Assembly: GCA_046563655.1 (NCBI GenBank)
Contig: CM102285.1
Coordinates: 930,001 to 994,000 of the forward strand
Source of the DNA: Yuukianura sp. NJ FZ-2021
Lineage: Eukaryota
Reading direction: 5' to 3'
Length of the DNA stretch: 64,000 nucleotides
Below are positions 4,911 through 61,110 of the stretch, in pieces. Position numbers and translations under genes: made by a program. Each line of letters begins with the position of its first letter. The first letter of the stretch is position 1. The notes under the pieces were generated by a model. The model had not been told where the DNA came from, did not search any database, and was given only the letters and a program-made list of their open reading frames with translations.

Positions 4911-7749
4911 CTATACAACTTTTTCATCGTCAGCCACAGTAATCCACCATTGGACTTTGTAGTACTGTTGAACTTGTTCAACGTTGTGAATTTCACGCTC
5001 CTGAGTTCAAATTTCAAAGTAGAGGGAAAAACTCAATTTAAAGAAAATTGGGTTGAAAAATTTTATGTAAAATATTGGATTCAGTCAAATCACCTTTAGG
5101 TAGTTCCGAATTTCGTCAGGCCCACCTAATCTCCTCACCAGGTCTGATCCTAAACGAGTAGAAAGAGATTTAATAATATGCTTATTAAGCAGAGCTACTC
5201 TATGGTTAGACTCGTCCGTCTGTCTACTGGTCGGTACTAAACATCTCGGAAATATTTGAGAAATACTGTTTAATATTTCCGGGATCTGTTTTCAATAATA
5301 AACGTTATGGGCTCCGGAGGGTGTTAACTATTGAATATCATCCCGGTGGCTCCCGTCCATCCGGGTCAAAGGTCAATACCGGTGTTATACCCGGGAGCAA
5401 CAAAAATGACCTCCACAAGAGTTGCTCGTTTCGTCGAGGACAACTACTTTTGTATACGTCATGTTACCACAAGTAGTTTCATCCCGGGTCAAAGGTCAAC
5501 TTTTCTTTTACCTATCATAGTCATGGTGTATTATGGTACTCCACCAGGAGCAGTTTTCCGCTAATCCAGCACCCTCTCTCGCTACTTACGTAAATCGGTT
5601 ACCGACAGTTTTTTCATCATGTAATACAAGATGAAAAAACGGTCGGAAACCGCTGTAAGTATATATTTGCCTTACATTATATATGATGTAAGATATAATA
5701 TTCTCGCTTACTGATCCAGGTAAGACCCGGATGTATGTTGTGCCAAAAGTAAACGTCCTTCAAACTTGTCAACAACAATGATTTCGCACTGGAAACCAAT
5801 TTGGAAAAAATGTCTTCCCTTCCATTCATATTGATGTATTCCAGTCGCTCCAACTCTACAAAGAAAGTTATTTAATGTTTTATATATAATGTCACATTAT
5901 AATACACATACAATACCACAGCACAGTAAGACCCAACTCACTTTCGAATGATGCGACGTGCGGCTTAGCTCCACACTCCAGGTCAAAGTCATGTTGTTCC
6001 AGTGTATAATAAGAAATTGCGAGACAACGGACATGCACAAAGTACTTGAACAAACCAATCAGATTGCGCGTAGCTTCGTTGTCGAACTGGAGTTTAGTGA
6101 CATTTGGGAAGAGTTTGTAGTATGGCAGAGGTGTGTATGTCCGTTCAGGGTTTGTTTTTACTTCTAAGTGGAATTCTACAACGTTTGGGTAGACATAGGA
6201 CAGTGCAGCTGGAAAATCCTGTGCGGTTAAGACAGTTGCATTTTCACTCAAAACAACCAGTTTGAGTTGCGGAAGTTGCGTTGAGCTTAAAAGCTTCAAC
6301 GGGTTTTCCAACCACGTGACTGCCGTAGTACGCAATGAGCGAACGCGCGGAAAGACGTCAAACAAAGCCAATGCATCGTGGGGCAGTGACGAGTCGATGG
6401 CTACTATATTTTTGATCTGATCCTTCCATACCCGGTGACGTACACTGGTGGTATCTAATAACAAAACATAACATACCATGGCAACATTACATAAAAACAC
6501 AACAAAATCCCGTTACCAATTCCCACGATGTTCACAGCGAACAGCTGAAGTTTGATCCTCCGTGCGTTTGCGTCGAACCACCGTTTGGAATATTCTTGAA
6601 CTTCGCTCCTCTCTGGATCGTAACCAAGGTCTTGGAGATGCGTTCCAAATTCACGCGGCATGCTGTTCCGGCCATAGTAGAAAATACAAGGTTGTGGTAT
6701 AAAAAATTCCAATGCAGGAGCATTCCTCACGACGGCCTTAACCCAATGGGAAATGCTGAAAATATTGGTAAATAGTCTCCTTTGCAGCATTCTGGTTTTC
6801 TGGTATTGACGGATATACTGTAACGTTTATAGTCAGTGGTAACCTAACTTAACCGACCAATGAGAAGCCACAATGCAAAAGTTGGTATGTGCAGTAGCGT
6901 AACTACGGGTAGCCGTACCCATCAACCTTTCATCTTACCAGTCACAAGCAATGTCAAGGATAGACAGCCTCGGGAGCAACGGCACTGAAATGTCATCCAG
7001 CTCCTGTTCAAGCTTCTTCCAATGAATAATATTTCCTACCATAAAAATGTAAAAACCCGAATTATGATTCAACCAGGCGTAGAAATCTTTTTTTTTTGTT
7101 AACAAACCGTGTCTTAGTTGTTCAGGCCAGAAGTCCTGTATGGAAATTTGAAGTACTTCGAGTGAGTGGCTGACTTTGTGTAGAAGAGCGCTGATCCGTA
7201 CCAGTCCTGCCTTATCAAATACTAAGTAATTGCTTGGTAGTACATCGACCATGATGTCATCAGTAGCGACGTCGTTGACGCACAATTCCACGATGCAGTT
7301 TGCGTACAGAGTTCCAAAGGCCTGGGCCTGGGCATCAGTTCCAACATGGACATTCCACAGAAATCGTGGGAATGGAATTGGAGTCTCAGCTCTGCCGAAT
7401 GTGCACAGGAACAGTTCCATCTGCTCCTTTGTTTGAAGGGAAATGTACTGCAAAGCCTTAAGAAAATTTGAATTCGAAAATTTCATTTTCCATAGAAAAA
7501 GTTGGTTCCATTTGGAGCAAACGAGTCGTGTGGAACACAAGTCTCGAACGTTGAGATTTTCGAAAATCTGCTCTAAAACCTGTATTATGAAGATTATAAC
7601 AACATGAAACAAAAATTGTATGCCGTAATGACATAAGCTCAAGTTGAAAGTATGTTCTAAAATTATTATTGAATCCGTGTTACTGTTTATTTAGCTATTT
7701 AGTCAAATATAAGACAACATCAAATTACCAATTGTGGAAGACGGTTCAT
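4911..7749 (-). CDS. F-box protein with LRR-like C-terminal region, paralog A (multi-exon)
   Basis: Exon 1 MNRLPQL (7749-7729) splices to VLEQIFENLNVRDLCSTRLVCSKWNQL (F-box). Later exons carry FPRV..L.T...WLENPLK, LPYYKLFPNVT, HDFDLECG.KP and LERLEY, ending ...VQWWITVADDEKVV*, all shared with paralogs B-D. Confidence 0.8.
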
Positions 7750-44074: not shown

Positions 44075-47000
44075 TTACACAAGTTGTTCGACTTCAATTA
44101 AGCCCGGTTCACTGATCCACCATTTGATTTCGAAAAACTCTTGCAGTTGAGTTACATTCGGTAGCTCCTGTTTCTATGAAAATTGGTTTTCGTTGGTAAT
44201 TTGAATTACCATATATTAGTTATAATATAATATGTTATTTGCATATTTTATAACAATAGTTTCAATAAATTGCACTTTGGTTTTGAATGGCACAAATGGA
44301 CACTTACTTTTAGGGTTTCGCCATACTGTCGAATAGTTTTTCTTGTTCTACCTAAATTCAAAACAGAGTCAAAGCCATCAAGGCAAAAACTAACCAATTG
44401 GTTAGTTAGTATTTTGTTTGTTAACAAACAAAATGGCGGATACAAGCTACATGGAAAAGTCGTCCGAAGAGTAATGACAATATTGACTTACCACTCCTAA
44501 GCGTCTTACGTGGAATCATATACCATAGGTACACAGACTTCAACTGCGACAGCGCAGAAGCCTTGGCACTTCTGAGCAATCTTGATATAACCTCCTCACT
44601 TCCATCCAAACACCAGTATTCTAGTCGTTCCAGGTCTGAAAATACATAGAGTAAAAGCATACTATATGCTTTTATAAATATATATAAATTATTATACATT
44701 TATTATAATAATATAATATATGTACAGTGTTGTTCACGAAAAAGTAGACACCCCAAAATCATTTCCATGCCATTTCTTGTAAAATTTGCAATTTGTGTGG
44801 GGAAATTGAGACCACCAAACAAAAAACGTTTGAAAGAAATTATATTGGGCAGGTTATTTTTTTGAATTTTGATACTCATAGCCCCCCAGAATTTTGAAAA
44901 TAAACAAACTTTTGAGTTTGTTGGTGTCTACTTTTTCGTGAACAGCACTATATACTGATTGATATATACGTAAATGGTGTAAATGTATCATACATTTAAA
45001 CGAAGGTTGTTATAGCTCCCATTTGTACAAATACGCTAACAGTTTATACCATAACTCCGATTTTTTTTAAAACACGATAAAAAAAACTTTAGTAACAATT
45101 TTTTTTTATTTTCACAATTATTTTTTGAACCTTTTTTAATTTCCGCGTTTCTGAATGATAGTTTTGATTTCAATTACTAACGCAACGTAGCCGCGTCGGA
45201 TATGACATTCAAAAAATTTTAAAATTTGAAAAAAGGAGTTATGTTATAACCTGTTAGGAAAAACATACAAAATTTCGATTTAAACAACCTTGATTTACAA
45301 GGCTCAACAAAGACACACTTCTTCTGTATAGCGTAAGGTTAAGGAAAAGTTTTCCGTTGGCAAGACACCTTGATTCACAAAAACAATGATGACATAGTAT
45401 GCGTTATTTCGAAATTAACAAGTATTCACTACGTAAATTGAAACTTACTCTTAAATGACACGACGTCAGGTTTCCCTCCACACTCCAAGTCAAAGTCATG
45501 ATCTTCAGCAGTACGGCCCCCAATATACATGCCGACAGCATCACCAAGTACAAGGTAACTAACTTTTGGAAAGTGGTTGAGTAAACCAAGCAGAGTTGGT
45601 GTAACTTCACGGTACACCTTCAGCATCGTGACGTTTGGGAATAGTTTGTGGTAAGGTAAAAGTATATATGTATCATACAGTCCAGTATTCACACGCAGAA
45701 CCAATTCTACGACATTGGGGTAGATGTTGGACAGTTCCGCTGGGAAATCCAGAATAGAAACGTTAGAAACTCCACTTAGCATCACGCGCCTCAGGCGCGG
45801 AAGTTTTGTTGGGCTCAAGACTTTCAAGGGGTTTTCCAACCACGTGAGTGGTGAAGTATATAGTGTTTTCACGCGCGGGAAAACATGATTCGTGATTTCG
45901 CCTAAGTCAAATTCCGTTAGTGCTTCAAAATTTCGGATTTGGTCGGTCCACAAACGGCGTAATGTTTCATCCTCCCAAAAAAATGATCTTATTTCACGTC
46001 GGTATGTTCGAGCGTTTGCTGAAACGCACTTCTCGATGTAGCGTTGATCATCTTTCTTTTGAGTATTATACTCAAGCTCTATTAACTTTTTTCCAAAGCC
46101 AGCCAACTTGGAGTCAGACGGAGAATTAATGTATCTTCGCGAAACAAATTCCAATACAGGAGCTTTTCCTATTAAGGCTCCAATCCATTCGTGGATGCTG
46201 AAAACCACAGAAAAATGATTCTCTCAGTTCTACACTCAATTTGGACATTCATGATTTGAAAGAACAATACAAGAACTTTAAAACATTAGGAAAACCGTGC
46301 TACTTAAATATTACAAAGCATTATTCAGGCTACACCAGAACCCCAAATTGGGAAACTTTTTTTCTCTCACCTGACACGAGGATACCGTAAACGCTAACTT
46401 TTTATGGGGTTTTGCAATATACAGAAATGAGCTCAAGGCGCTTTGGGTAGTCCGATTTGTACTGTACTCAGAAAGTTTACGGTAGGCGCGAAAATGTTTT
46501 AATCCAACCAACCAATCAGAGTGAGTTTCCTAATTTGGAGTTCTGGTGTATATAGATCAGAAATTAACTTACTTGCCACCAAATACGTCCAAAATCGTTA
46601 ATTTGGGCAGTGCTGGAACTGGGATTTCCATTAGCGATATTTCTTTGTACCAGTCCCCAAATGTAATTTGGAGTACTTCCAATGTACTTGCCACTAAATG
46701 CAGAAGAGTGCTGATTCGCATGTGCGACTCCTGATCACTCAATGGTTGAAATGGTCCATAGTATACTATGTTGGCATAAATGTCGGTGCTCCGTTCTACA
46801 TCAATGCTTAGTTCCACCATTGCAGAGGCATAGAGAGTTCCAAGGTCATTGACCTCAGCATCCGATCCAATGTACACATTCCATAGAAATCGGGGAAACG
46901 GAATTGGCACTTCCGCTTCAGAGAATGTGGACAGGAACAGACGCAGTTTTTCATCCGACTCCAGTTGGACGTAGTGGAGGGAATTTATGAAATGTGGATT

Positions 47001-47217
47001 TCGAAATTGAAGGAATATTTGGTTGAATGTGGAGCAAACGAGTCGCATGGAACAAGAGTCTTGTACATTCAGATATTTGAAAACATGCTCCAAAACCTGT
47101 TAAAAACAATGAATTAGTTGAACAATTGGAGTAAAATTAGTTGAACAAACTGGAGTAAACCTTGTTTTTTTTTAATCAATAGTGGCTAGTTTTTACCAAA
47201 TCCGGCAACTTGTCCAT
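44075..47217 (-). CDS. F-box/LRR-like protein, paralog B
   Basis: MDKLPDL|VLEHVFKYLNVQDSCSMRLVCSTFNQI, followed by exons homologous to paralogs A, C and D, ending WISEPGLIEVEQLV*. Confidence 0.85.
44725..44950. mobile_element. Tc1/mariner-type MITE in an F-box B intron
   Basis: TA|CAGTGTTGTTCACGAAAAAGTAGACACC ... GGTGTCTACTTTTTCGTGAACAGCACTA|TA: 28-bp TIR with TA flanks. Confidence 0.85.
45002..45292. mobile_element. CAAGG-ended MITE (inverse orientation relative to 61278-61538)
   Basis: AAGGTTGTTATAGCTCCCATTTGTACAAATACGC is the reverse complement of 61504-61537. Internal TAACAG..CCATAACTCC / GGAGTTAT..AACCTGTTA inverted arms. Confidence 0.75.
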
Positions 47218-48089
47218 TTTCAAATGTTGTCTAGAAATTTCAAGATACTTTGCAATAGCTGTGTGACTTGTAAACGGATTCAAACTTTTCTAAAGTTTCA
47301 ACTGCACATTTTTTCTTTTACTGTAGCGGTTCATGCTCAAATGGACCTTCGTTTCCTATTTTGAGAAGTAGGAAAACGGTTTTGTTCAAACCAAAGGGAA
47401 ATTTTAAAAATAGTGCCTTAAGTTAACAATGCTGAGGTCCTTTCTGGTGATTCCGATTGTAAAGGCAGAACTTTTTTCCGGTTTCTGTTTTGTTGTAATT
47501 TAATTTGCTATAAGTAAGTATAACATTATACTTTTATCGTCTCTGCTTATGATGTACTTTTACCGCTGAAAATATAATGCCGATGTAAACACACTTCAAC
47601 ATTACTTCTTTCTTTCTTTGTGTGTTTTGTTTTGAAGTAATGGCATGGACTCGTTTGCACAAATTTTGAAATAGCATAACCATCGTTGCTGGAATTGTAC
47701 ACAAAGAACGGTGAAATATGTTTCAATGGCTCAAAAATTGTAAATCCTGCGTGTAAAATTTATTCACAACCAGTTTAAATATTAAAACATATTTTTTAAA
47801 AAGCGAGATGTCAGGCGGCAAAACTTGATTGATGTAATTCTACATTACTGTTTTCTATGTGTTGAAACCAATTGCACTTTATCGTCCATTAAAAGATAAC
47901 CTTTGGTGAGTGACACCGCCATCAGCGCATTTTGGCGGTCGCCAGTTTGATCAGTTTTTCGAATCAATTGACTTTTAAAGACCAAGTTAACCTAGTTTTA
48001 ACTGAGTTAAAATTAACACAATCAACATATTTTACAGCTTCAACGTTACGACCCAGCTTTTGCTTTTGATTTTCATTACAACAAGGTGG

Positions 48090-51000
48090 ATGGCAAGCGT
48101 AAGGAACGAAATGGGGACAGTACGGGAAGTCCCACTGGTAAAAACTAAATAAACTGATTTTTTAGATAGAAAGTCAATATAGAAGAAAATTGTGTAATCA
48201 GAACATCCTTTTACTAAAAAGTGATTTAATAACTAGGGTTGTTCAAGTTCCGTTCCGTTCCGTTCCCACGAAGAAACGGAAACGGCACTGGAAGAGAGTT
48301 TTTTAAAGTGGAACGGAACTGGTTTAAAAATTGTGAAACGGAAACGAAAAGGCACCGGAATGAAACGGAACGGAACTGGAACCGAAATATAGACATAACT
48401 TGAGGGTCCGAGTGTTGGACGTAGCTTTTTGTCTTCCTATGTGGTCGAGATAAGCGAGAAATAACCACCATGAGCACATAAGAACAATATTTCAATCTTA
48501 TTCTGCATTTTTGATTAATTTTCTCTAAAGAATTGACTCAGAAGGTATGAAATTTAAATATTTGAGGAAGTTTTCGTTTCCAGTTCCATGGAGAGGTGAA
48601 AATGGTTGCACTACACCATGGAACTGGAGACAAAACAGAAATGGAACTTTTATTTCGTTTCCCAAAATGTGGAAACGGCACTGGAACCGGTTTCGTTTCG
48701 TTTCTGGCGCCGAAACTTGAGCATCCCTATTAATAACATATTAGAACTTATACTTTATGAAATTCTTGCAGCAAAGGAATACTCCCGAGGAGCTCAAGAC
48801 AATGATGAAGAAATTGTTTGAAGAGGAATACTACTCAAGCATACTTGAACGTCAAAAAAGCGCTGGACTTCATATTAGACTAAAAACTGTGGGTGGAACT
48901 TCTAATGCTGACTTGGAGAAAATGATCCTGGAAGATATTTCAAATTCAAATGGTCCGTTGTCAACACTTGTGCTTGGAGATTCGGGAACTGGAAAATCCT
49001 GGTTAGCACTCAATTTAGCCAAGACATTGTACGACTCTCCAGAATACGCCAACAAAATTCCTGTGTACATTCCGTTGGGGCGAATTGAGAAAATGATTAG
49101 GCAGCAGAAAGCTCAGCCGTCCAGTAGTTTCAGGTCGGACATTTTGTTTAGTTATATAATGAACCATACAAATCACTTTCCAACAAAAATTCAAGACAGG
49201 GAGTTGCAAAATTTGTATTTGGATCTCTGCGCATGCGAATTGGTTTTGGTTTTGGATGGATATGATGAGCTCAAAGTCAAGTCGAATTTGTGGGAAGAAA
49301 ACAAATGGAGGACTAAAGATTTCAAAAATGTTCGAACAATCGTTTCTTGTCGACCGAATGCACTAGTTGATGTTGACGTTTCAAAAGTGTTTGGATTCAC
49401 GGAAGAACTTCAATGTAGTTATGTCATATTACCATTACAAGGAAACATTGTTGGGCAGTATATTAGTCAAGTTCCGCTATTTTTACATTCACTTGAGTAT
49501 GATTCAAGGGTCAATGACCCATGGATGATGACCAAGTCTATTACAAAAGAATATCCAAAGTGGGAATCTACTGAGGAGGATTCCGAGTACAAAAAATGGT
49601 TTTTAGACAAACTTCCGGAATTGCAAGAATTGGCACAAAATGTTTTCATTTTGACAACAATTTGTCAACTGTTGCCAAAATTAGTAGAGACTGAGAGGAT
49701 TGCTTGTAAGAAGGAAGACGTAACTGATGAGTTTATGCAGAAATTACAAGAGCTTTGTAGAACAGAAGTTCTTTTGTATGATAGATTTACTGAAACTTGG
49801 TTTAATTATCAAGTAGAAAGGATGGAAGCAACTGGACATGCGCCTTTTCTTTATGAAAATCGTTATATACTGCATCACTATATGGGTGGGTATGCACAAA
49901 ATTTAGCCATGCGTTGTGCTCAACTTGACAGAGAAATGGTTTCAAATGGTGAAATTTCAGAAGATAAAACTTTGTTTTGGAATCTTTGGACTCCTTGGAA
50001 TCCAAACTCAGAAAAATTTCATAGAGATGAAAAGATAGAAAAACAACTTTTTCCACAAAATGAAAATGACACAAATGAAGATCGGCTAGAAAATCTGAAA
50101 TTTTTGAGGAATTCTTGTTTGCTGCGATACGAGTCAGGCGCTAAAATTTTTCGTTTTTTGCATTTGTCTCTTTTTGAATATTTTTTAAGCCGAGAAGTTT
50201 TTGAAAAATATCGTGGTGCATTGAATTACTATTCGAATTGGAACAGAAGAAGGGAAGGAGTTTACTTTCTAATTAATCAACATAATATTAATGATCCAGA
50301 ATTTAGCGGTGTTTTGTCCATGCTTGTTGGCAGAGCTGAAACAGATGAAAACTTTCAAGCTACTTTGCTAAAAGCAATTAAAAAATCTGCCACACTTCCC
50401 GGAATTGAGCAAATGGCTTCGAATGCTTTGACGATTTTAAATTTAAGCGGGTACAGTTTTTCTGGGAAAAACCACGAGGGCGATGATTTTCAAAATATTC
50501 AAGTTCCAGGAGCAAATTTTAGAAATTCCATTTGCGGAAACACTGATTTTAGTGGAGCAAATTTTGAAAATGCTAAATTGAATCAAGGCTGGTTTCAAGG
50601 ATGTAAATTTCAAGGTGTAAATTTTTCAAATTGTTCGTTCGGTCAAATTCCTCCAATTAATCTTGACTTACAAAATTTTCTCATTCATGACATTATTCTA
50701 TGTTCCACAATTGACGGATTTGAGCATGTCATCATCTGTTGTGAAGAACAAAGTCCAACAACAGAAGACGCAAAGGTTTATGTAAAAAATTACAAATTGA
50801 ACGCAAACTTTGAATTTGTAGAATGCAAATCATTTTTTGTTCAAGAAACCACTAAAGAAATAGAATACATATTTTCCTTAGTAGAACGTCCAAGCAGCAT
50901 TATTCTTTTCGTGTTTGTGCCTTGTGTATTAGGTTTTTTAGATGAGAAAATTATGCGTCCTGATTCTTGGCACGAATTCAGTTCCAACTCGGTTTTGAAT

Positions 51001-53622
51001 TCTGGAAAATTTGCAGAAACTAATATGAATTTGCAACATCATTTAAAAATTTTCGAGAAATTGGACACAACACAAAAATTTATTATGTTCTCCCAGAATA
51101 AACTTCCAGAATTTTGTGACAAGGAAACATCAATGTCAGTTTATGAAAAAAACCGAAAAAATGGCGTGCGTTTTTTGTGTGCGCGTTGGATAAAGTATAT
51201 TTGGATACCGTTTGGACAATTTAAATTTCTTGTTTCGATATCTTCTCGACATGCTGGTGAAATTGGAGGTATTATCGATCACGTTTCGGTTTTACACAAT
51301 TGGAAGCCAATTTTGTGCAACGATGAAAGCATTCCTTTAGAAATATTTTGGCAAGTTGACAGTTCTGGTTCTAAAGCAATGCAAGAAGAACAAGAGGCAT
51401 TTCAATTTCAACAAATCTCTATACACTGTCGTGGATCATACTTTGATGACAACGTGATTTTGAGTATTCCAAGCGCCGCAAATATTTACTTTTTTGACTT
51501 AAAGCACAACAAAGTACTCACTGTATTGAAAAATAACATTTTCAATGAAACTGTTTCACATAATAACAGTGCCATATCTGAAAGAATAGCCTTTACTCGT
51601 TACCCGATGGAACGCAACAGGGAAATACCAGGATATATTGCGAACATTGCGACAAGAAGGAATGTAGGCTGTTTTGTTTCCCAAGAATTTGACTTTATTG
51701 GACTAAGAAACCAACTTTCAACAGAAGTGTTTAGAGTTGAAAATGGAACGCTATCACAGTCTGTTCTCAAGGATTTCCAAACGCCTATTACGTTTAAACG
51801 TTCAAACGGGAGTGCTTATTTGGTTTACGTTTTTAAATGTTCCTTGCATTTTGAAAAACTTGACGTGGTTGAGCTTGGTCCAAAAAAGAGGGCTACAAAG
51901 TCTATTGCCGGAAAATATTTTTCAGGAGATGGAAGCTTATTTGTTGTAGTTGTCCCTTCTGCACCACTAACAGCTATCTTTGATATTTGGAAACTTCATA
52001 GTGAAGCTGGTAGTCACGTATTGAAAGAAAGTTTTGATAGTCGTATTCAGTTAAAAAGTTTTGAGATGCCTAAACAGAAGCACAGAGTTCTCATAACTCC
52101 ACGCAACTTGGTTGTATTTTCCTATTGGCTTTTTCGTCCTCCAGTTTCCCTGACTGTACCTCAGCTTAATGGGTATGATGCTGAATCTGGGAAAATATTT
52201 CAAGTAAACGGTATACCGTACGAGAGGATGTCTCAAGGAACTAAAGTTTTGATGTTTCAGGATTTACAGGAAATTGTGTTTAGAAATGACGAGGAGTTTG
52301 CATGTTATAGTGTTAGTGAAATTATTTGTGGTGATACATTCGCTGTAGAGTTGATTCCCAGCGTCAGTTTTACCTGCAATTTCCAAAGTCCCGAATTTTA
52401 CATTGATCCGAATGAAAAACGTATATATTTTTTCTCAAAAAAGGATACTAATTTTGACCGTATTGGAATTTGGGACCTACAAAATAATACGTACGGGACA
52501 TTCGATGTCAAAAATTATAAAATTGTTCAACCTAATATAAGTCTTTGTACAGTTCTCTTAAAAACAAAGATCATTCAAGGCTACTGCAACAAAAACTCGT
52601 TTAATATAGAAAGTACAAATGGATACAGCACATTACATGCAGAGAGTCCTGTACATGTTTCTTCCAGTTCAAAATTAGGTTGGATTGTAGCACAGTTTCG
52701 CAATGGGGATTTAGTCATTTTAGAATCAAGAAAGTTGGTAACATTGTTTGTCTTTTGTGGATTTCAACCTGGGTTTAAATTTCAAATAACATTTAAATCT
52801 CCTGAACAAGTTCGTATCGCCCTTATTAAAGATTATGCTGGAGAGGTAGTTTGGCTGAGTATAAACGCAGTGGCTCTAAGGCAGTATTATGAACAAGGAA
52901 AATTGAAAGAATTCAAAGACTGGAAAGTTAATAAAAGTGAAGTTCCAAGTTCCAGTCTTTCGTTGAGTGAAGTTGACATAAGCTGCTCACGAGCGATGGA
53001 TAAGCGATTTGGGTCACTGTTTAAATTTCATGGTTCACTTGGTTCTCCGTCAGAGGGAGACGCGTATAAACCATTTTGCAATTTGTTTCTACCGGTAACA
53101 GACTACCAACATTCCATTCTAACAACTTCTGGCAGTAAACAACTGGTTGACTTGACTACTAAAAACTGGACAGTGACAGTCATTACTAAAAAGAATAAAT
53201 TTAAACAGTTGCGTCAAGCAGTGCATGGTTCAGTAGAACAACATGCAGCGTTGATTATTGAAGGAATTTTACATGGGGGACACTTTGTCATTAGAGCGGA
53301 ACTGACACGAGAAAACAAAGCAGTAAAAATCAAATGTGAATCTTTTAGAGGGAAATCACTGTATGAAGAAATTATTAAGAAATATTTTGGAAAGCAACTT
53401 GAAGTAAATCCTGAAATGGGAATGAAATTGTTGAAAAATATTTGGGTAGATACGTATAACCTACAATGGAAGTACAATTTATTGCATCATAACTGTAATA
53501 GCTGGTGCAAGGAAAAACTCAAGGAATTGAATATTGAAACCAAATTTAAGTCTAAACCATATAAACTTTTCGCTGACCTTCCAAAAGATTTTGAGTTGAA
53601 GGAATTTAAATTTAGTAAATAA
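48090..53622 (+). CDS. NLR-like STAND protein: NACHT, pentapeptide repeats, divergent beta-propeller-like region and a C-terminal PPPDE/LRAT-like peptidase motif; probable exons 48090-48098 and 48772-53622
   Basis: Walker A GDSGTGKS, Walker B LVLVLDGYDE, IVSCRP, LYDRF..WF and FRFLHLSLFEYF. Pentapeptide block ASNALTILN..G.SF..DFQNIQVPGANF...DFSGANFENAKL. C-terminal QHAALIIEG...YNLLHHNCNSWC. ATG GCA AGC|GTAAGG joins in phase 0 to the TTGCAG|CAA acceptor. An alternative start is the in-frame ATG at 48757. Confidence 0.85.
48234..48729. mobile_element. hAT-like non-autonomous element (496 bp) in the first intron of the NACHT gene
   Basis: TIRs TAGGGTTGTTCAAGTT / AACTTGAGCATCCCTA, a perfect 8-bp TSD TTAATAAC (48226-48233, 48730-48737) and many GGAAC/GTTCC subterminal repeats. 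Confidence 0.9.
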
Positions 53623-54294
53623 ATGTGACTATCATGTTATAAAAAATTTAACACTGTTAAGGATTTGAACTACAAATTATGTTTATTATGAAACAAAATT
53701 AACGCTGGCTGGATCTTTTTCCACTGCGATTGGCGACTGCTTTCATAAACTTTTTCTGTTGATTCTGTACACATATATACAGCAGCACTCAACATTAAGT
53801 TCGAAAATTGTTATTTAACTATTTTTCCAGAATTTTTGAATTTGCAAGAAAAAACAATTTGCAAAATTTTATACTTTTTGTCAGAGTTGGCGCAAAGCGA
53901 ATTATCAAAATTGCTAGTTTCAGGAATCGAACTGAATATTTTTTATTACTGAACTGAAGTTTTGAAACATCAGTCGGAAGTTTAAGGTAAACCATAGTTA
54001 AATACCAACATTTAACTTTTAACTGAACTAATTTTTAATTATAAACTTTAACTATATAGACAATTTTTTGACGTTTATTTTCAACTACTCTAATACCACA
54101 CCGCTTACTTTGAAGAACTATAAATAGCAGTTGTTTAGATTTCACAATTCACGTTTCTAAAATCAAGTCGTGTGAAAGTCAAAAGTTCAGATTAAACTAT
54201 TTTGGCTAAATGCTGAAAAAATTAATATAAAAATTTTAATTGTAATTGTGCATCTGAATATGTAATTTTTACATTGGTTTAAGTTTCTACCCTA

Positions 54295-57957: not shown

Positions 57958-60900
57958 CTACACGAGTTGTTCTGCTTCACATGCGCCCATTCTGCTGATC
58001 CACCACTTGATCTCGAAAAACTTTTGAAGTTGAGCTACATTCGGTAGCTCCTGTTCCTATGATAAATTCATTTTCGTAGGTTATTTGTAATAATATAGTA
58101 TAATATTTGCATATTTTGTAATATAGTCTCAATTTATCGTAAGTTGTTTTTCTATTGAACAAATGAATGCTCACTTTTAAGGATTCGCCATACTGGCGAA
58201 CAGTTGTCGAACCTAAATTTAAAAAAGAATCCAATCAATTAAAGCAAAAAATTTCAAAAGTGCAAATGGACAGATAGAAGCTATGGAAAAGTTGTCCAAC
58301 GAGTAAAGACAATTGACTTACCAGTCCTAAGCGTCTTATGTGGAATCACATGCCATAGGTACACAGACTTCAACTTCGGCAGCGCAGAAGCGTTTGCACT
58401 CTTAATCAATCTTGACATTACCTCTTCACTTCCGTTCAAATACCTGAATTCCAGTCGCTCCAAGTCTGAAAATTATTCCAAACAAATGTGTTATATAATA
58501 TTTCCTACATCGATAATCACGTAAAAATATATGTACAGTATCTGCATATAAACGAATAGAAATTATTAACATTTACGCATAAACATTCACACGAACATGC
58601 ACAAGCATTTATGTATGGCCGAATTTTGCCACAGAACTTTGCCGCAGAATTTTACCACAGAATTTTGAGTAATTCGAAAACCATGGGGCGAAATCCGTCG
58701 CAAAACAGGATTTACATATATGACTTCGAGAGGTTGTAGAATTGTGGAGTGACAACTCAAGGGTTAGAGTACTTCCCGAATGGAAGAGGTGTATATGTTC
58801 GAATCCCACTCGGTATCTTATTTGCTACACTCTCGTTCTTTGTCTCTCAAGCCATGTGATCCCTGAACGTTCAGTTTTTAGTGTGATACGCTGTATTTAT
58901 ACATATATACTCCTGGGATAGGTGTATTTACATTTACGTATATTAACGCAATTGGAACTTACGCTTAAATGACACGACGTCAGGCTTTGCTCCACACTCC
59001 AGATCAAAGTCATGCTTTTCACGATAACGGCGTGAATCCAAAAGGCCGGTACCATACTGAATTACAAGGTGACGGACTTTTGGAAAGTGGTTAAGCAAAC
59101 CAATCAGATTCCGAGTAACCTGACGCTCCAGTTTCAGCATAGTGACATTCGGGAAGAGTTTGTAGTAAGGCAGAAGTGCATATCTCTCCCCTCGTTTCCT
59201 TCTCACGCGCATAAACAATTCCACGACATTCGGGTAGATGTAGGAAAGTTCCGTTGGGAAATCAAGAGTGGAGAGGTTATTCGGATTTTCACTCAGAATC
59301 ACGCGCCTCAGCCGCGGAAGTTTAGTTGGGCTGAAAACTTTCAAGGGATTTTCTAACCACGTACGTGGTGAAGTCCAAAGTGTTTGAACGCGCGGGAAAA
59401 CATGATTTGCCTGTCTGTCAAATTCGATCAGCACTTCAAAATTTCGGATTTGGGCATTCCACAATCGGTGGAATGTTTCTGTTTTACGTTCGATCCGTAC
59501 AGAAAAGGGACTTATCACACGTTTGTATCTTCTTGCATTTGCTAAAAACCACTTTTCCGTGTAGATTTGGTCATCTTCGTAGTATGTGTCATAATCAAGC
59601 TCCATTAAATTTGATCTAAGGTCAGGCAACAGGAAGGGCGAGGAAAACGGAGAATTAATAATGTTTCTTCGTGTAACGAATTCTAATATAGGAGCTTTTC
59701 TTATTAAGGCTTCAGTCCATTTGAGGATGCTGAAAATCATAGAACATAGGCATGAATCACATTAACACTTTTAGTTCTACACTGAATTTTGATGTTTATG
59801 ATATGATAAGGAAAGATCAACTAAAATATTTAAAAATTTAAAAAAAATTAAAATAGCGGGTGTATTAAAGCTAAGTTTATTTATTATTGTTTTGATGTTT
59901 CGTAGGGGTGGGTCCGTTTCGTTTCGTTTCTCGCTGGAAACAGAAACGGAACGGCACAGCGTGTGTGGAAACAAAAACGCAACAGAAATTTTGAGCATGG
60001 AACGAAACGGAACTGGAACAGAACCGAAACGGAACTAGAACAAGAAATGCATGCGTTGTATAGCAAACCCTCCCGAATGCATCTTAGCCGTCAATTTCGA
60101 AACTTTGCAAATGCGCCGGTTAGTCATTTGACTCGCTAACAACATCCATAAGCATGTGGAAAATCGGTTAAAAACTAAATTTTGTCGTTAAAAATTTCCG
60201 GTTCGACATTTTTACAGCTAAAAATCGCCGAACACAAAGAAAATTCTTAAGTTCTGTTCCAGTTCCGTTTCTGATCTTGGAACAAGAACAGAAGGGGATG
60301 GAACAGAAACGAAACGGAACCGGATTTTCTGTTACAAAAAATTATGGAACAGAAAAGAAACGGAACTGGAACAGAGGCTGTTCCGTTTCTTGGAACTGGA
60401 ACTTTCCCACCCCCAGATTTTGTGTGATGAATAAATAATTCTGTAAATTAATATTACGCTTTTAAGATTAACTCACAGATTAACTAACCTGTCACCTGTT
60501 ACGCCCAAAATGGAAAGTTTGGGCAGTACTGGAACTGGGGCTTCCTCTTCCGACAATCTAGTATACCAGCAGAACGGGAAACTAATTTCCAGCATTTCCA
60601 ATGTGCTTCCCACCAAGTGCAGAAAAGTGCTGATTCGCTTGAGCGATTCTTTCTGACTCAATGGTTCAAACAGTTCATAGTCTGCTATGTCAACAAACAA
60701 GTCGATGCTACGTGTATCAGTTATGCTTAGTTCCACCATGGTAGAGGCATAGAGAGTCCCAAGGTCATTGACCTCAGCATCTGATCCAATGTACACATTC
60801 CATAGAAATCGGGGAAACGGAATTGGCACTTCCGCTTCAGAGAATGTGGACAGGAACAGACGCAGTTTGTCATCCGACTCCAGTTGGACGTAGTGGAGGG

Positions 60901-61110
60901 AATTTATGAAATTGGGATTTGAAAATTGAAGGAATGTTTGGTTGAATGTGGAGCAGACGAGTCGCATGGAACAAGAGTCTTGTACATTCAGGTACTGGAA
61001 AACATGCTCCAAAACCTGTTAAAAACGATCAGTTAGTTTCACAAATGGATTAAACCTTGTTTTCTAAATCCATAGTGGATAGTTTTTACCAAACGTGGTA
61101 AGTTGTTCAT
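57958..61110 (-). CDS. F-box/LRR-like protein, paralog D
   Basis: MNNLPRL|VLEHVFQYLNVQDSCSMRLVCSTF, colinear with B and C, ending WISRMGACEAEQLV*. Confidence 0.85.
59903..60415. mobile_element. hAT-like MITE related to 48234-48729, in an F-box D intron
   Basis: TAGGGGTGGG...CCCACCCCCA termini and the same GGAAC/GAAAC subterminal repeat style. No clean TSD. Confidence 0.65.

Follow-up and report, generated by a model that had tools for sequence, protein, structure and literature searches.

The subject of this report is a long gene at positions 48757-53622 of the forward strand in a 64-kb stretch of DNA from Yuukianura sp. NJ FZ-2021 (GenBank assembly GCA_046563655.1, contig CM102285.1, positions 930,001 to 994,000). 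We refer to the whole stretch as the window and count positions from its first letter. The gene is a single exon without introns and consists of one open reading frame (ORF) of 1621 codons after the first ATG. Its stop codon lies at 53620-53622 and is included in the coordinates, and it encodes a protein of 1621 amino acids, P0001. In order, P0001 comprises a short leader, a NACHT ATPase module, pentapeptide repeats, a hypervariable middle region, a conserved linker and a C-terminal domain (hereafter C-domain) with conserved His, Glu, Tyr and Asn-Cys positions. The putative output module of the P0001 sub-family is located at the extreme C-terminus of the protein, not at its N-terminus.

Measured from stop to stop the frame spans 1625 codons, compared with 325 codons for the runner-up in the window, and given the base composition a frame of this length has a chance of about 1e-50. 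An earlier annotation of the same DNA made from the letters alone (the sequence-only reading) had placed the start at 48090, which is 667 nucleotides too early: an in-frame stop codon at 48742-48744 precedes the ATG at 48757. Because the N-termini of relatives line up with Met1, an upstream exon is not needed for P0001, and with the in-frame stop this alignment ruled out both an upstream exon and an additional N-terminal domain. The GC content of the ORF (0.354) is similar to that of its flanks (0.375 and 0.360). Elsewhere in the window we found no second copy of P0001 and no small paralogue of the C-domain (all other rows E≥0.54), and PADLOC gave no meaningful match.

The N-terminal part of P0001

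The first 70 residues (48757-48966) form a weakly conserved helix-strand leader ahead of the P-loop, in which neither Pfam nor the alignment of relatives revealed a domain. The leader is followed by the NACHT ATPase core, residues 71-204 (48967-49368), which matched PF05729 with 25.0 bits, narrowly under the cut-off of 26.7. All of the expected motifs are intact: Walker A, GDSGTGKS, at residues 74-81 (48976-48999); Walker B of the hhhhDG-DE form, LVLVLDGYDE, at residues 162-171 (49240-49269); and S-C-R-P, present as VSCRP (49342-49356). Five relatives that carry the C-domain scored 28.0-46.4 bits for NACHT, over the cut-off, as did further relatives without the C-domain; another relative, P0025, fell narrowly below it with 24.1 bits. 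With its Walker motifs and a NACHT profile match just short of the cut-off, P0001 has the features of the P-loop NTPases in the NACHT clade of the STAND/NLR receptors (signal transduction ATPases with numerous domains; proteins with a nucleotide-binding domain and with leucine-rich repeats).

The position of the NACHT, about 60 residues from the N-terminus, and the lack of an effector in front of it had both been noted from the letters alone, and both observations held. No N-terminal effector or adaptor was detected, the 70 residues ahead of the NACHT being without a Pfam family match. Sixteen family members were aligned, and Walker A falls at residue 62-122 in 14/14 of those in which it could be located. 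Therefore, the absence of an N-terminal effector is a trait of the family and not the result of a truncation.

The rest of the nucleotide-binding and oligomerization module, residues 205-557 (49369-50427), is conserved with relatives by BLASTP and phmmer. P0001 and P0002 share 31% identity across 597 residues (BLASTP, E 3e-59), and residues 50-660 were matched by 15 long relatives in phmmer. The module runs into a pentapeptide-repeat beta-helix at residues 558-630 (50428-50646), where PF00805 matched residues 585-630 with 31 bits against a cut-off of 20.2, as the sequence-only reading had anticipated. An AlphaFold model of residues 560-1621 gave this helix a predicted local distance difference test score (pLDDT) of 84-90. 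Compared with PDB sequences, whole P0001 matched designed proteins with pentapeptide repeats and no others, in each case weakly (best E 0.0085), and NCBIfam gave only weak, sub-threshold matches over the same stretch. The superstructure-forming repeats found C-terminally in STAND/NLR proteins are thus represented in P0001 by pentapeptide repeats.

Proteins of this NACHT-pentapeptide-repeat lineage are already known in Mucoromycota fungi and in the bacteria that are their endosymbionts. In the portion of PMC11291939 (Ciach et al. 2024) available, NACHT-PPR-WD40 receptors (PPR, pentapeptide repeat) are described as common to Mortierellomycota and their Mycoavidus endosymbionts, with a parallel case in Gigasporaceae, and exchange of the backbone between bacteria and fungi is proposed. 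Like these receptors of Mortierellomycota and Mycoavidus/Glomeribacter, P0001 has a NACHT module followed directly by pentapeptide repeats, and its family is spread over bacteria and eukaryotes. Its homologues include a protein that bears the name of Entomortierella (E 2.5e-6) and another with the name of a Glomeribacter metagenome-assembled genome (MAG; E 3.6e-14). In contrast to them, P0001 has no detectable WD40 repeats. In the more distant NACHT-pentapeptide-WD40 relatives, P0003-P0018, similarity to P0001 is confined to its N-terminal third and no C-terminal His/Cys domain was seen, and the same portion of PMC11291939 makes no mention of a C-terminal enzyme domain on such receptors.

The middle region

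Residues 640-1400 (50674-52956) are hypervariable, beta-rich where any structure is predicted, and presumed to be the sensor. A propeller had been proposed here from the letters alone, and we could not recover it. Pfam gave no match in this region at E≤1, and a word-based database search with residues 640-1400 returned 0/3566 candidates at E≤0.01. Running phmmer --max with the middle against all collected relatives produced a sole match, the fragment P0019, which overlaps residues 1295-1399. A WD40 hidden Markov model (HMM) built from 206 repeats of relatives did not match P0001 either, the real sequence scoring no better than shuffles. The AlphaFold model of residues 560-1621, built with 18 aligned relatives, had a mean pLDDT of 50.8, with 594/1062 residues below 50; its pentapeptide helix and C-terminal domain were confident, and its middle was of low confidence, drawn almost only as beta-strands.

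For the middle of P0001, then, Pfam, the family WD40 HMM and the homology searches gave no WD40 signal. Canonical WD40 repeats do occur at the corresponding position in the relatives P0028, P0043, P0002, P0040 and P0048, and the Atlas neighbors of the middle included leads at 0.85-0.87 (below 0.9), some of them ANAPC4_WD40 clusters. By analogy with the WD40 repeats of these relatives only, it is reasonable to suppose that the middle of P0001 may be a degenerate propeller.

A conserved C-terminal domain

When the last 242 amino acids were searched with phmmer against 1.84e9 representatives, 30 proteins passed E≤1e-3, of which 7 also passed E≤1e-10, and no protein reached E≤1e-30. P0041 was dropped from the set as a weak multi-stretch repeat match. 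Fifteen long proteins (1157-1673 amino acids) match P0001 in the NACHT-pentapeptide part and again in the C-domain, and not in between. The C-domain itself occupies residues 1466-1614 (53152-53598). It is preceded by a linker, residues 1419-1465 (53011-53151), that is likewise conserved, with the pattern G-x-P ... Y-x-P-x-C-x-L-F-x-P.

In a 30-sequence alignment of the C-domain, a small set of positions is nearly invariant. His1496 (53242-53244) is present in 29/30 sequences and lies in the His box QHAALIIEG, residues 1495-1503 (53239-53265), in which the Glu-Gly of the I-E-G turn is found in 30/30. Position 1515, Glu in P0001 (53299-53301), is polar in 30/30 (E16, D8, H5, Q1). The Cys box, YNLLHHNCNSWC, spans residues 1573-1584 (53473-53508) and contains Tyr1573 (53473-53475; 27/28), Asn1579 (25/28), Cys1580 (53494-53496; 28/28) and Trp1583 (27/28). 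The order is therefore His, polar, Tyr, Asn-Cys, with the His box ahead of the Cys box as had been read from the letters, and the conserved His lies N-terminal to the conserved Cys, as in permuted NlpC/P60 enzymes. One position departs from the family: residue 1508 (53278-53280), in the hairpin that follows the His strand, is Arg in 27/30 sequences and Gly in P0001 alone.

No other output domain was found in any family member by Pfam or in the alignments, and NCBIfam gave no consistent match across C-domain members. A profile of 23 C-domain sequences (alignment A1), searched in a set of 5.8 billion proteins, returned 2 matches, both within the family, and hence no bridge to a named family. Judged from its sequences, the C-domain is a small unnamed conserved family of about 150 residues (about 200 at the protein end), without a Pfam or NCBIfam model.

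Predicted fold of the C-domain

Alignment A1 was used for both AlphaFold and profile comparison with hhalign. The resulting AlphaFold model of the C-domain (pLDDT 79.5, predicted template modeling score 0.77) has, in model numbering, a strand at 52-60, His78 just before a strand at 79-87, and a strand at 90-101 with the polar residue at 97. Two more strands and helices follow, and helix 162-171 starts with Cys162. The conserved linker packs against the domain in this model, with pLDDT up to 92. As far as the consulted part of PMC3142127 goes, permuted NlpC/P60 members have a Cys/His/polar triad in common as well as a conserved Tyr, and their Cys sits at the N-terminal end of a helix. The secondary-structure layout and the additional Tyr of that feature list are both found in the C-domain model and alignment.

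Foldseek, which the sequence-only reading had suggested for the C-terminal region, returned permuted NlpC/P60 neighbors from PDB, DeSI-2 included, all of them weak (E≥0.012). The best was TseH (6v98; prob 1.00, E 0.012, template modeling (TM) scores 0.41/0.45, 157 columns). [quoted passage not shown] Against BFVD, the matches were kobuvirus polyproteins, one PPPDE protein and one YaeF/YiiX C92 protein, all at E≥0.011. Additionally, the 23 members gave weak Pfam matches to Peptidase_C97 (5/23 at E≤1, best E 0.004), Lnb_N/DUF4105 (3/23), DUF2459 (3/23) and LRAT (1/23), all within the permuted-papain group. The LRAT match (E 0.11) did not reach the PF04970 threshold of 24.3 bits, and the N-C-x-S/T-W-C motif of the C-domain differs from the N-C-E-H-F of LRAT.

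For hhalign, comparison alignments were assembled from bacterial genomes for Peptidase_C92 (20 loci), LRAT (8 loci) and DUF4105 (20 loci, two from an unpublished genome being left out). A1 scored 31.5 against DUF4105 (P 4.7e-4, probability 33%) and 27.8 against the eight bacterial LRAT sequences (P 1.5e-3, probability 17%). Both scores exceeded those of 40/40 column-shuffled versions of A1, which reached at most 18.9 and 18.4, and those of reversed A1 (10.5-12.2). The score against C92 was non-significant (18.0, P 0.073), and in that non-significant alignment the two families nevertheless have their His, Glu, Tyr and Cys in the same columns. Among the known families, C92 and LRAT scored 58.7, C92 and DUF4105 21.5, and DUF4105 and LRAT 21.1. 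The scores of A1 are above those of DUF4105 itself to C92 and LRAT, and therefore the links that tie the C-domain to DUF4105 and LRAT are no weaker than those between DUF4105 and its own accepted relatives.

Taken at the level of the superfamily, the proposal of a permuted papain domain from the letters alone was upheld by residue order, predicted structure and best neighbors, and we regard a permuted papain-like Cys-His enzyme fold as quite probable for the C-domain. The narrower assignment to PPPDE did not follow. PPPDE is represented by Peptidase_C97, PF05903, which scored 12.6 bits for full P0001 and 14.5 bits for its C-terminal 203 amino acids against a gathering threshold of 29.2.

The C-domain would, on that narrower assignment, be a PPPDE/DeSI-type isopeptidase (deSUMOylase or deubiquitinase), and the receptor would signal by removing ubiquitin-like modifiers. 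We consider this unlikely, although it is the best of the rival explanations. Peptidase_C97 is the commonest weak Pfam match (E 0.12 for the full protein), DeSI-2 and a viral PPPDE protein are among the Foldseek matches, and the C-domain shares with PPPDE/DeSI and CLN5 a predicted permuted papain-like fold and a similar Y-x5-N-C spacing. Three of 30 Atlas neighbors are a cluster with PF05903 in 31% of its members (score 0.93, a lead only), and the N-C-N motif of P0001 is one that we take to resemble the PPPDE motif. However, the sub-threshold match spans just ~21 residues around the Cys, the His box is different, and DeSI-2 ranks under TseH, Aichivirus 2A and CLN5. The profile links, moreover, go to DUF4105 and LRAT. 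PF05903 was found in 0/400 bacterial genomes and 0/14 controls, and hence the hhalign comparison includes no PPPDE profile. Lastly, the bacterial hosts of the family, to our knowledge, lack SUMO.

Of the isopeptidase or acyltransferase effector first suggested for this domain, the isopeptidase is one option only, a lipid or acyl substrate being as likely. The best links are to TseH, LRAT and DUF4105. The accessible part of PMC12994826 treats TseH as a permuted NlpC/P60 enzyme, places it in one group with LRAT, YiiX, DUF4105 and the phospholipase Tox-Act1, states that these permuted members target lipids, and reports phospholipase activity for Tox-Act1 and TseH.

Relatives in bacteria

Prokaryotes, with each species represented by one genome, were scanned for a degenerate DNA motif, and three loci in Gammaproteobacteria MAGs were identified. 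One (L003) encodes a 1683-amino-acid protein with NACHT, pentapeptide repeats, WD40 and C-domain, and a second (L001) a partial equivalent of it. The third (L002, 4250-5455(-)) is a 401-amino-acid remnant in a 2.4-Mb gammaproteobacterial chromosome that retains the end of the WD40 region and the C-domain. This remnant has a hydrophobic Gly/Ala/Val-rich insert ahead of its His box and adjoins an IS66-family transposase at 5774-7309(+). The genes around the bacterial loci are ordinary bacterial ones, such as Kdo hydroxylase, PEP (phosphoenolpyruvate) mutase and transposases.

Searching with the A1 profile, we found the C-domain in 12/400 sampled gammaproteobacterial genomes. These are mostly small (1.5-5.3 Mb), several have multiple copies, and the C-domain usually ends frames of 1400-1570 amino acids. 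In four cases (two in G001, one each in G058 and G193) the large gene is directly followed by a small frame that is a stand-alone C-domain paralogue, of 233-263 codons from stop to stop (annotated ORFs 220-226 amino acids where listed), and in G003 a 419-amino-acid C-domain paralogue precedes the large gene. Such stand-alone loci lie at L001 3886-4566(-), L003 495-1754(+), L010 2145-2807(+), G058:C2:202849-203172 and G193:C143:14240-14551. The two that were translated, P0051 (226 amino acids, G001) and P0052 (419 amino acids, G003), keep the His and Cys motifs, and the flanking small paralogues gave no Pfam match. Each could be a partner, an inhibitor or a separate effector.

Because the P0001 gene is intron-less and its whole-length relatives reside in gammaproteobacterial genomes of 1.5-5.3 Mb, it most likely reached this eukaryote by transfer from bacteria, a direction that we infer.

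Possible further copies in sequencing runs

Four DNA runs contain parts of the stretch as short contigs, and no RNA run is listed with any. In run X1, 872 contigs align to 9 kb with 90-100% likeness, and site 50187 alone has at least 19 different contigs over it; contig depth was not taken as copy number. Many short contigs of 90-99% likeness from the same sample fall on 48900-50700 (NACHT-pentapeptide) and 53012-53622 (C-domain), and loose contig ends cluster just before 53012, at the start of the linker and C-domain, and just after 53622, at the stop codon. This pattern fits several diverged copies in one sample whose conserved modules are common and whose middle and flanks differ, and it suggests a multi-copy family that shares the NACHT-pentapeptide and C-domain modules.

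Runs X2 and X4 each contain one contig in which 47413 is joined directly to 54232 and 6818 nucleotides with the whole gene are absent; each junction is a single contig at the 90% threshold. The 9-nucleotide sequence AAATTTTAA is present at both edges of the skipped stretch, at 47399-47407 and 54231-54239. The junction may reflect polymorphic presence and absence, an insertion that duplicated its target, or an empty locus that is paralogous to this one.

Surroundings of the gene

The window looks eukaryotic in character: its frames are short and sparse, it has no tRNA, and genes of the F-box, Gemin5-type and class-3 lipase kinds occur in it as fragments. The neighborhood of the P0001 gene is intron-rich. 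F-box motifs are present in three separate frames, 6935-7642(-), 46569-47093(-) and 60473-61012(-), and class-3 lipase matches that are nearly identical to each other fall in frames 3-788 and 2279-2965; both sets are local repeats of gene families around the receptor gene.

Upstream of the ORF, at 48241-48705, lie dense short repeats of the GGAAC/GAAAC type in both orientations. Among them, 48241-48266 pairs with 48357-48382 as an inverted repeat of 26 nucleotides with 88% complementarity, and a 30-nucleotide near-palindrome lies at 48572-48635. The window has four occurrences of GAAACNGRAAC where 0.46 would be expected, and 48241-48705 holds two of these. A regulatory array is one possibility for the repeats, a small inverted-repeat element another.

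Discussion

On balance we favor the view that P0001 is a STAND/NLR-type NACHT ATPase of the NACHT-pentapeptide-repeat lineage whose output is a C-terminal Cys-His enzyme, triggered by the sensor through oligomerization. In such a mechanism, the fast-evolving middle region would bind the trigger and the NACHT module would then exchange nucleotide and oligomerize. The C-terminal Cys-His enzymes, once clustered, would act on an acyl, lipid or (iso)peptide bond, and the outcome could be membrane damage or cell death, or a signaling modification.

Several points weigh against this view. No structural match was obtained at E≤1e-3 in PDB or BFVD, and the TM scores are mostly below 0.5. No Pfam or NCBIfam family reached its cut-off for the C-domain, the best match of the C-domain profile to PDB sequences was to unrelated proteins at E 0.2, and the hhalign probabilities for DUF4105, LRAT and C92 are just 33%, 17% and 0.8%. 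The roles of the middle as sensor and of oligomerization in activation are proposed from likeness to other NLRs. Additionally, with Gly1508 in place of Arg, the P0001 copy could be impaired, to judge from the alignment.

Somewhat less probable than the isopeptidase assignment is an explanation in which the C-domain is not an effector at all, and would instead serve as an integrated module, decoy or sensor, or as a protease that processes its own chain by cutting the conserved linker ahead of it. The integrated domains of plant NLRs often follow the repeat region, as the C-domain does here, and the linker that packs against the domain could be a pseudo-substrate or a cleavage site. In decoys, however, catalytic residues are usually lost, whereas the His, polar, Tyr and Cys positions of the C-domain are kept in 27-30 of 28-30 sequences, and these near-invariant residues disfavor the integrated decoy that the sequence-only reading had also raised. 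A conserved C-domain and NACHT on either side of a variable middle are the pattern expected for an effector plus a sensor, and no family member offers another output domain. Weakest of all, the idea that the gene is an inert recent bacterial insertion or decaying paralogue without function in this eukaryote can draw on its lack of introns in an intron-rich neighborhood, its full-length bacterial homologues, the X2 and X4 contigs that pass over it and the Arg-to-Gly change at a site conserved in 27/30, but we think it improbable given a frame intact over 1625 codons, ATPase and catalytic motifs that are all preserved, a GC content like that of the flanks, and the many diverged copies of the conserved parts in one sample (at least 19 contigs at one site), which point to an expanding family and not a relic.

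The preferred reading, a receptor with a C-terminal Cys-His enzyme output, can be set beside known systems. Among the mammalian NLRP1/CARD8 receptors, the output of NLRP1 also follows the repeats, as proposed for P0001, and this C-terminal output is a CARD adaptor and not an enzyme. The C-domain has in common with TseH, Tox-Act1, LRAT/PLAAT, picornavirus 2A H-NC, YaeF/YiiX C92 and DUF4105 the His-polar-Tyr-Cys order, the Cys at a helix start and the N-C dipeptide; it differs from these named permuted NlpC/P60 families in its own H-x-x-L-I-I-E-G and N-C-x-S/T-W-C motifs, its invariant Glu-Gly turn and its N-terminal linker. A lipid-hydrolase-type output, as the C-domain may be, is also found on the fungal patatin-NLR PLP-1 (PMC10197012), in which the patatin domain is N-terminal and of an unrelated fold. 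The open-access main texts that we searched contain no description of a NACHT protein with a fused domain of the NlpC/P60, PPPDE or LRAT type. What is new, then, is an unnamed enzyme-like C-terminal output on a known receptor backbone, common to small-genome Gammaproteobacteria and a eukaryote.

A fuller scenario can be offered only tentatively, and as a whole it is rather doubtful. P0001 would belong to an undescribed trans-kingdom family of NLR-like proteins with a C-terminal, lipid-targeting permuted NlpC/P60 phospholipase or acyltransferase as an output for cell death or defense, switched by oligomerization of the NACHT. The family would have arisen, as a large gene with a small paralogue, in small-genome and probably host-associated Gammaproteobacteria. 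After its passage from there to a eukaryote, it would have grown into a multigene family that is polymorphic and has a hypervariable sensor.

NLR/STAND receptors usually read effector-NOD-sensor (NOD, nucleotide-binding and oligomerization domain), and the P0001 sub-family has no N-terminal module and carries an enzyme-like domain behind the sensor. The compact C-domain (~150-200 amino acids), with clear candidate catalytic residues, makes this hypothesis directly testable. If true, the permuted NlpC/P60 superfamily gains a new family through the C-domain, and if the C-domain is active, papain-like acyl or lipid hydrolysis would be a new output chemistry for NLRs. The family would also be a further case of immune-type receptors common to host-associated bacteria and eukaryotes.

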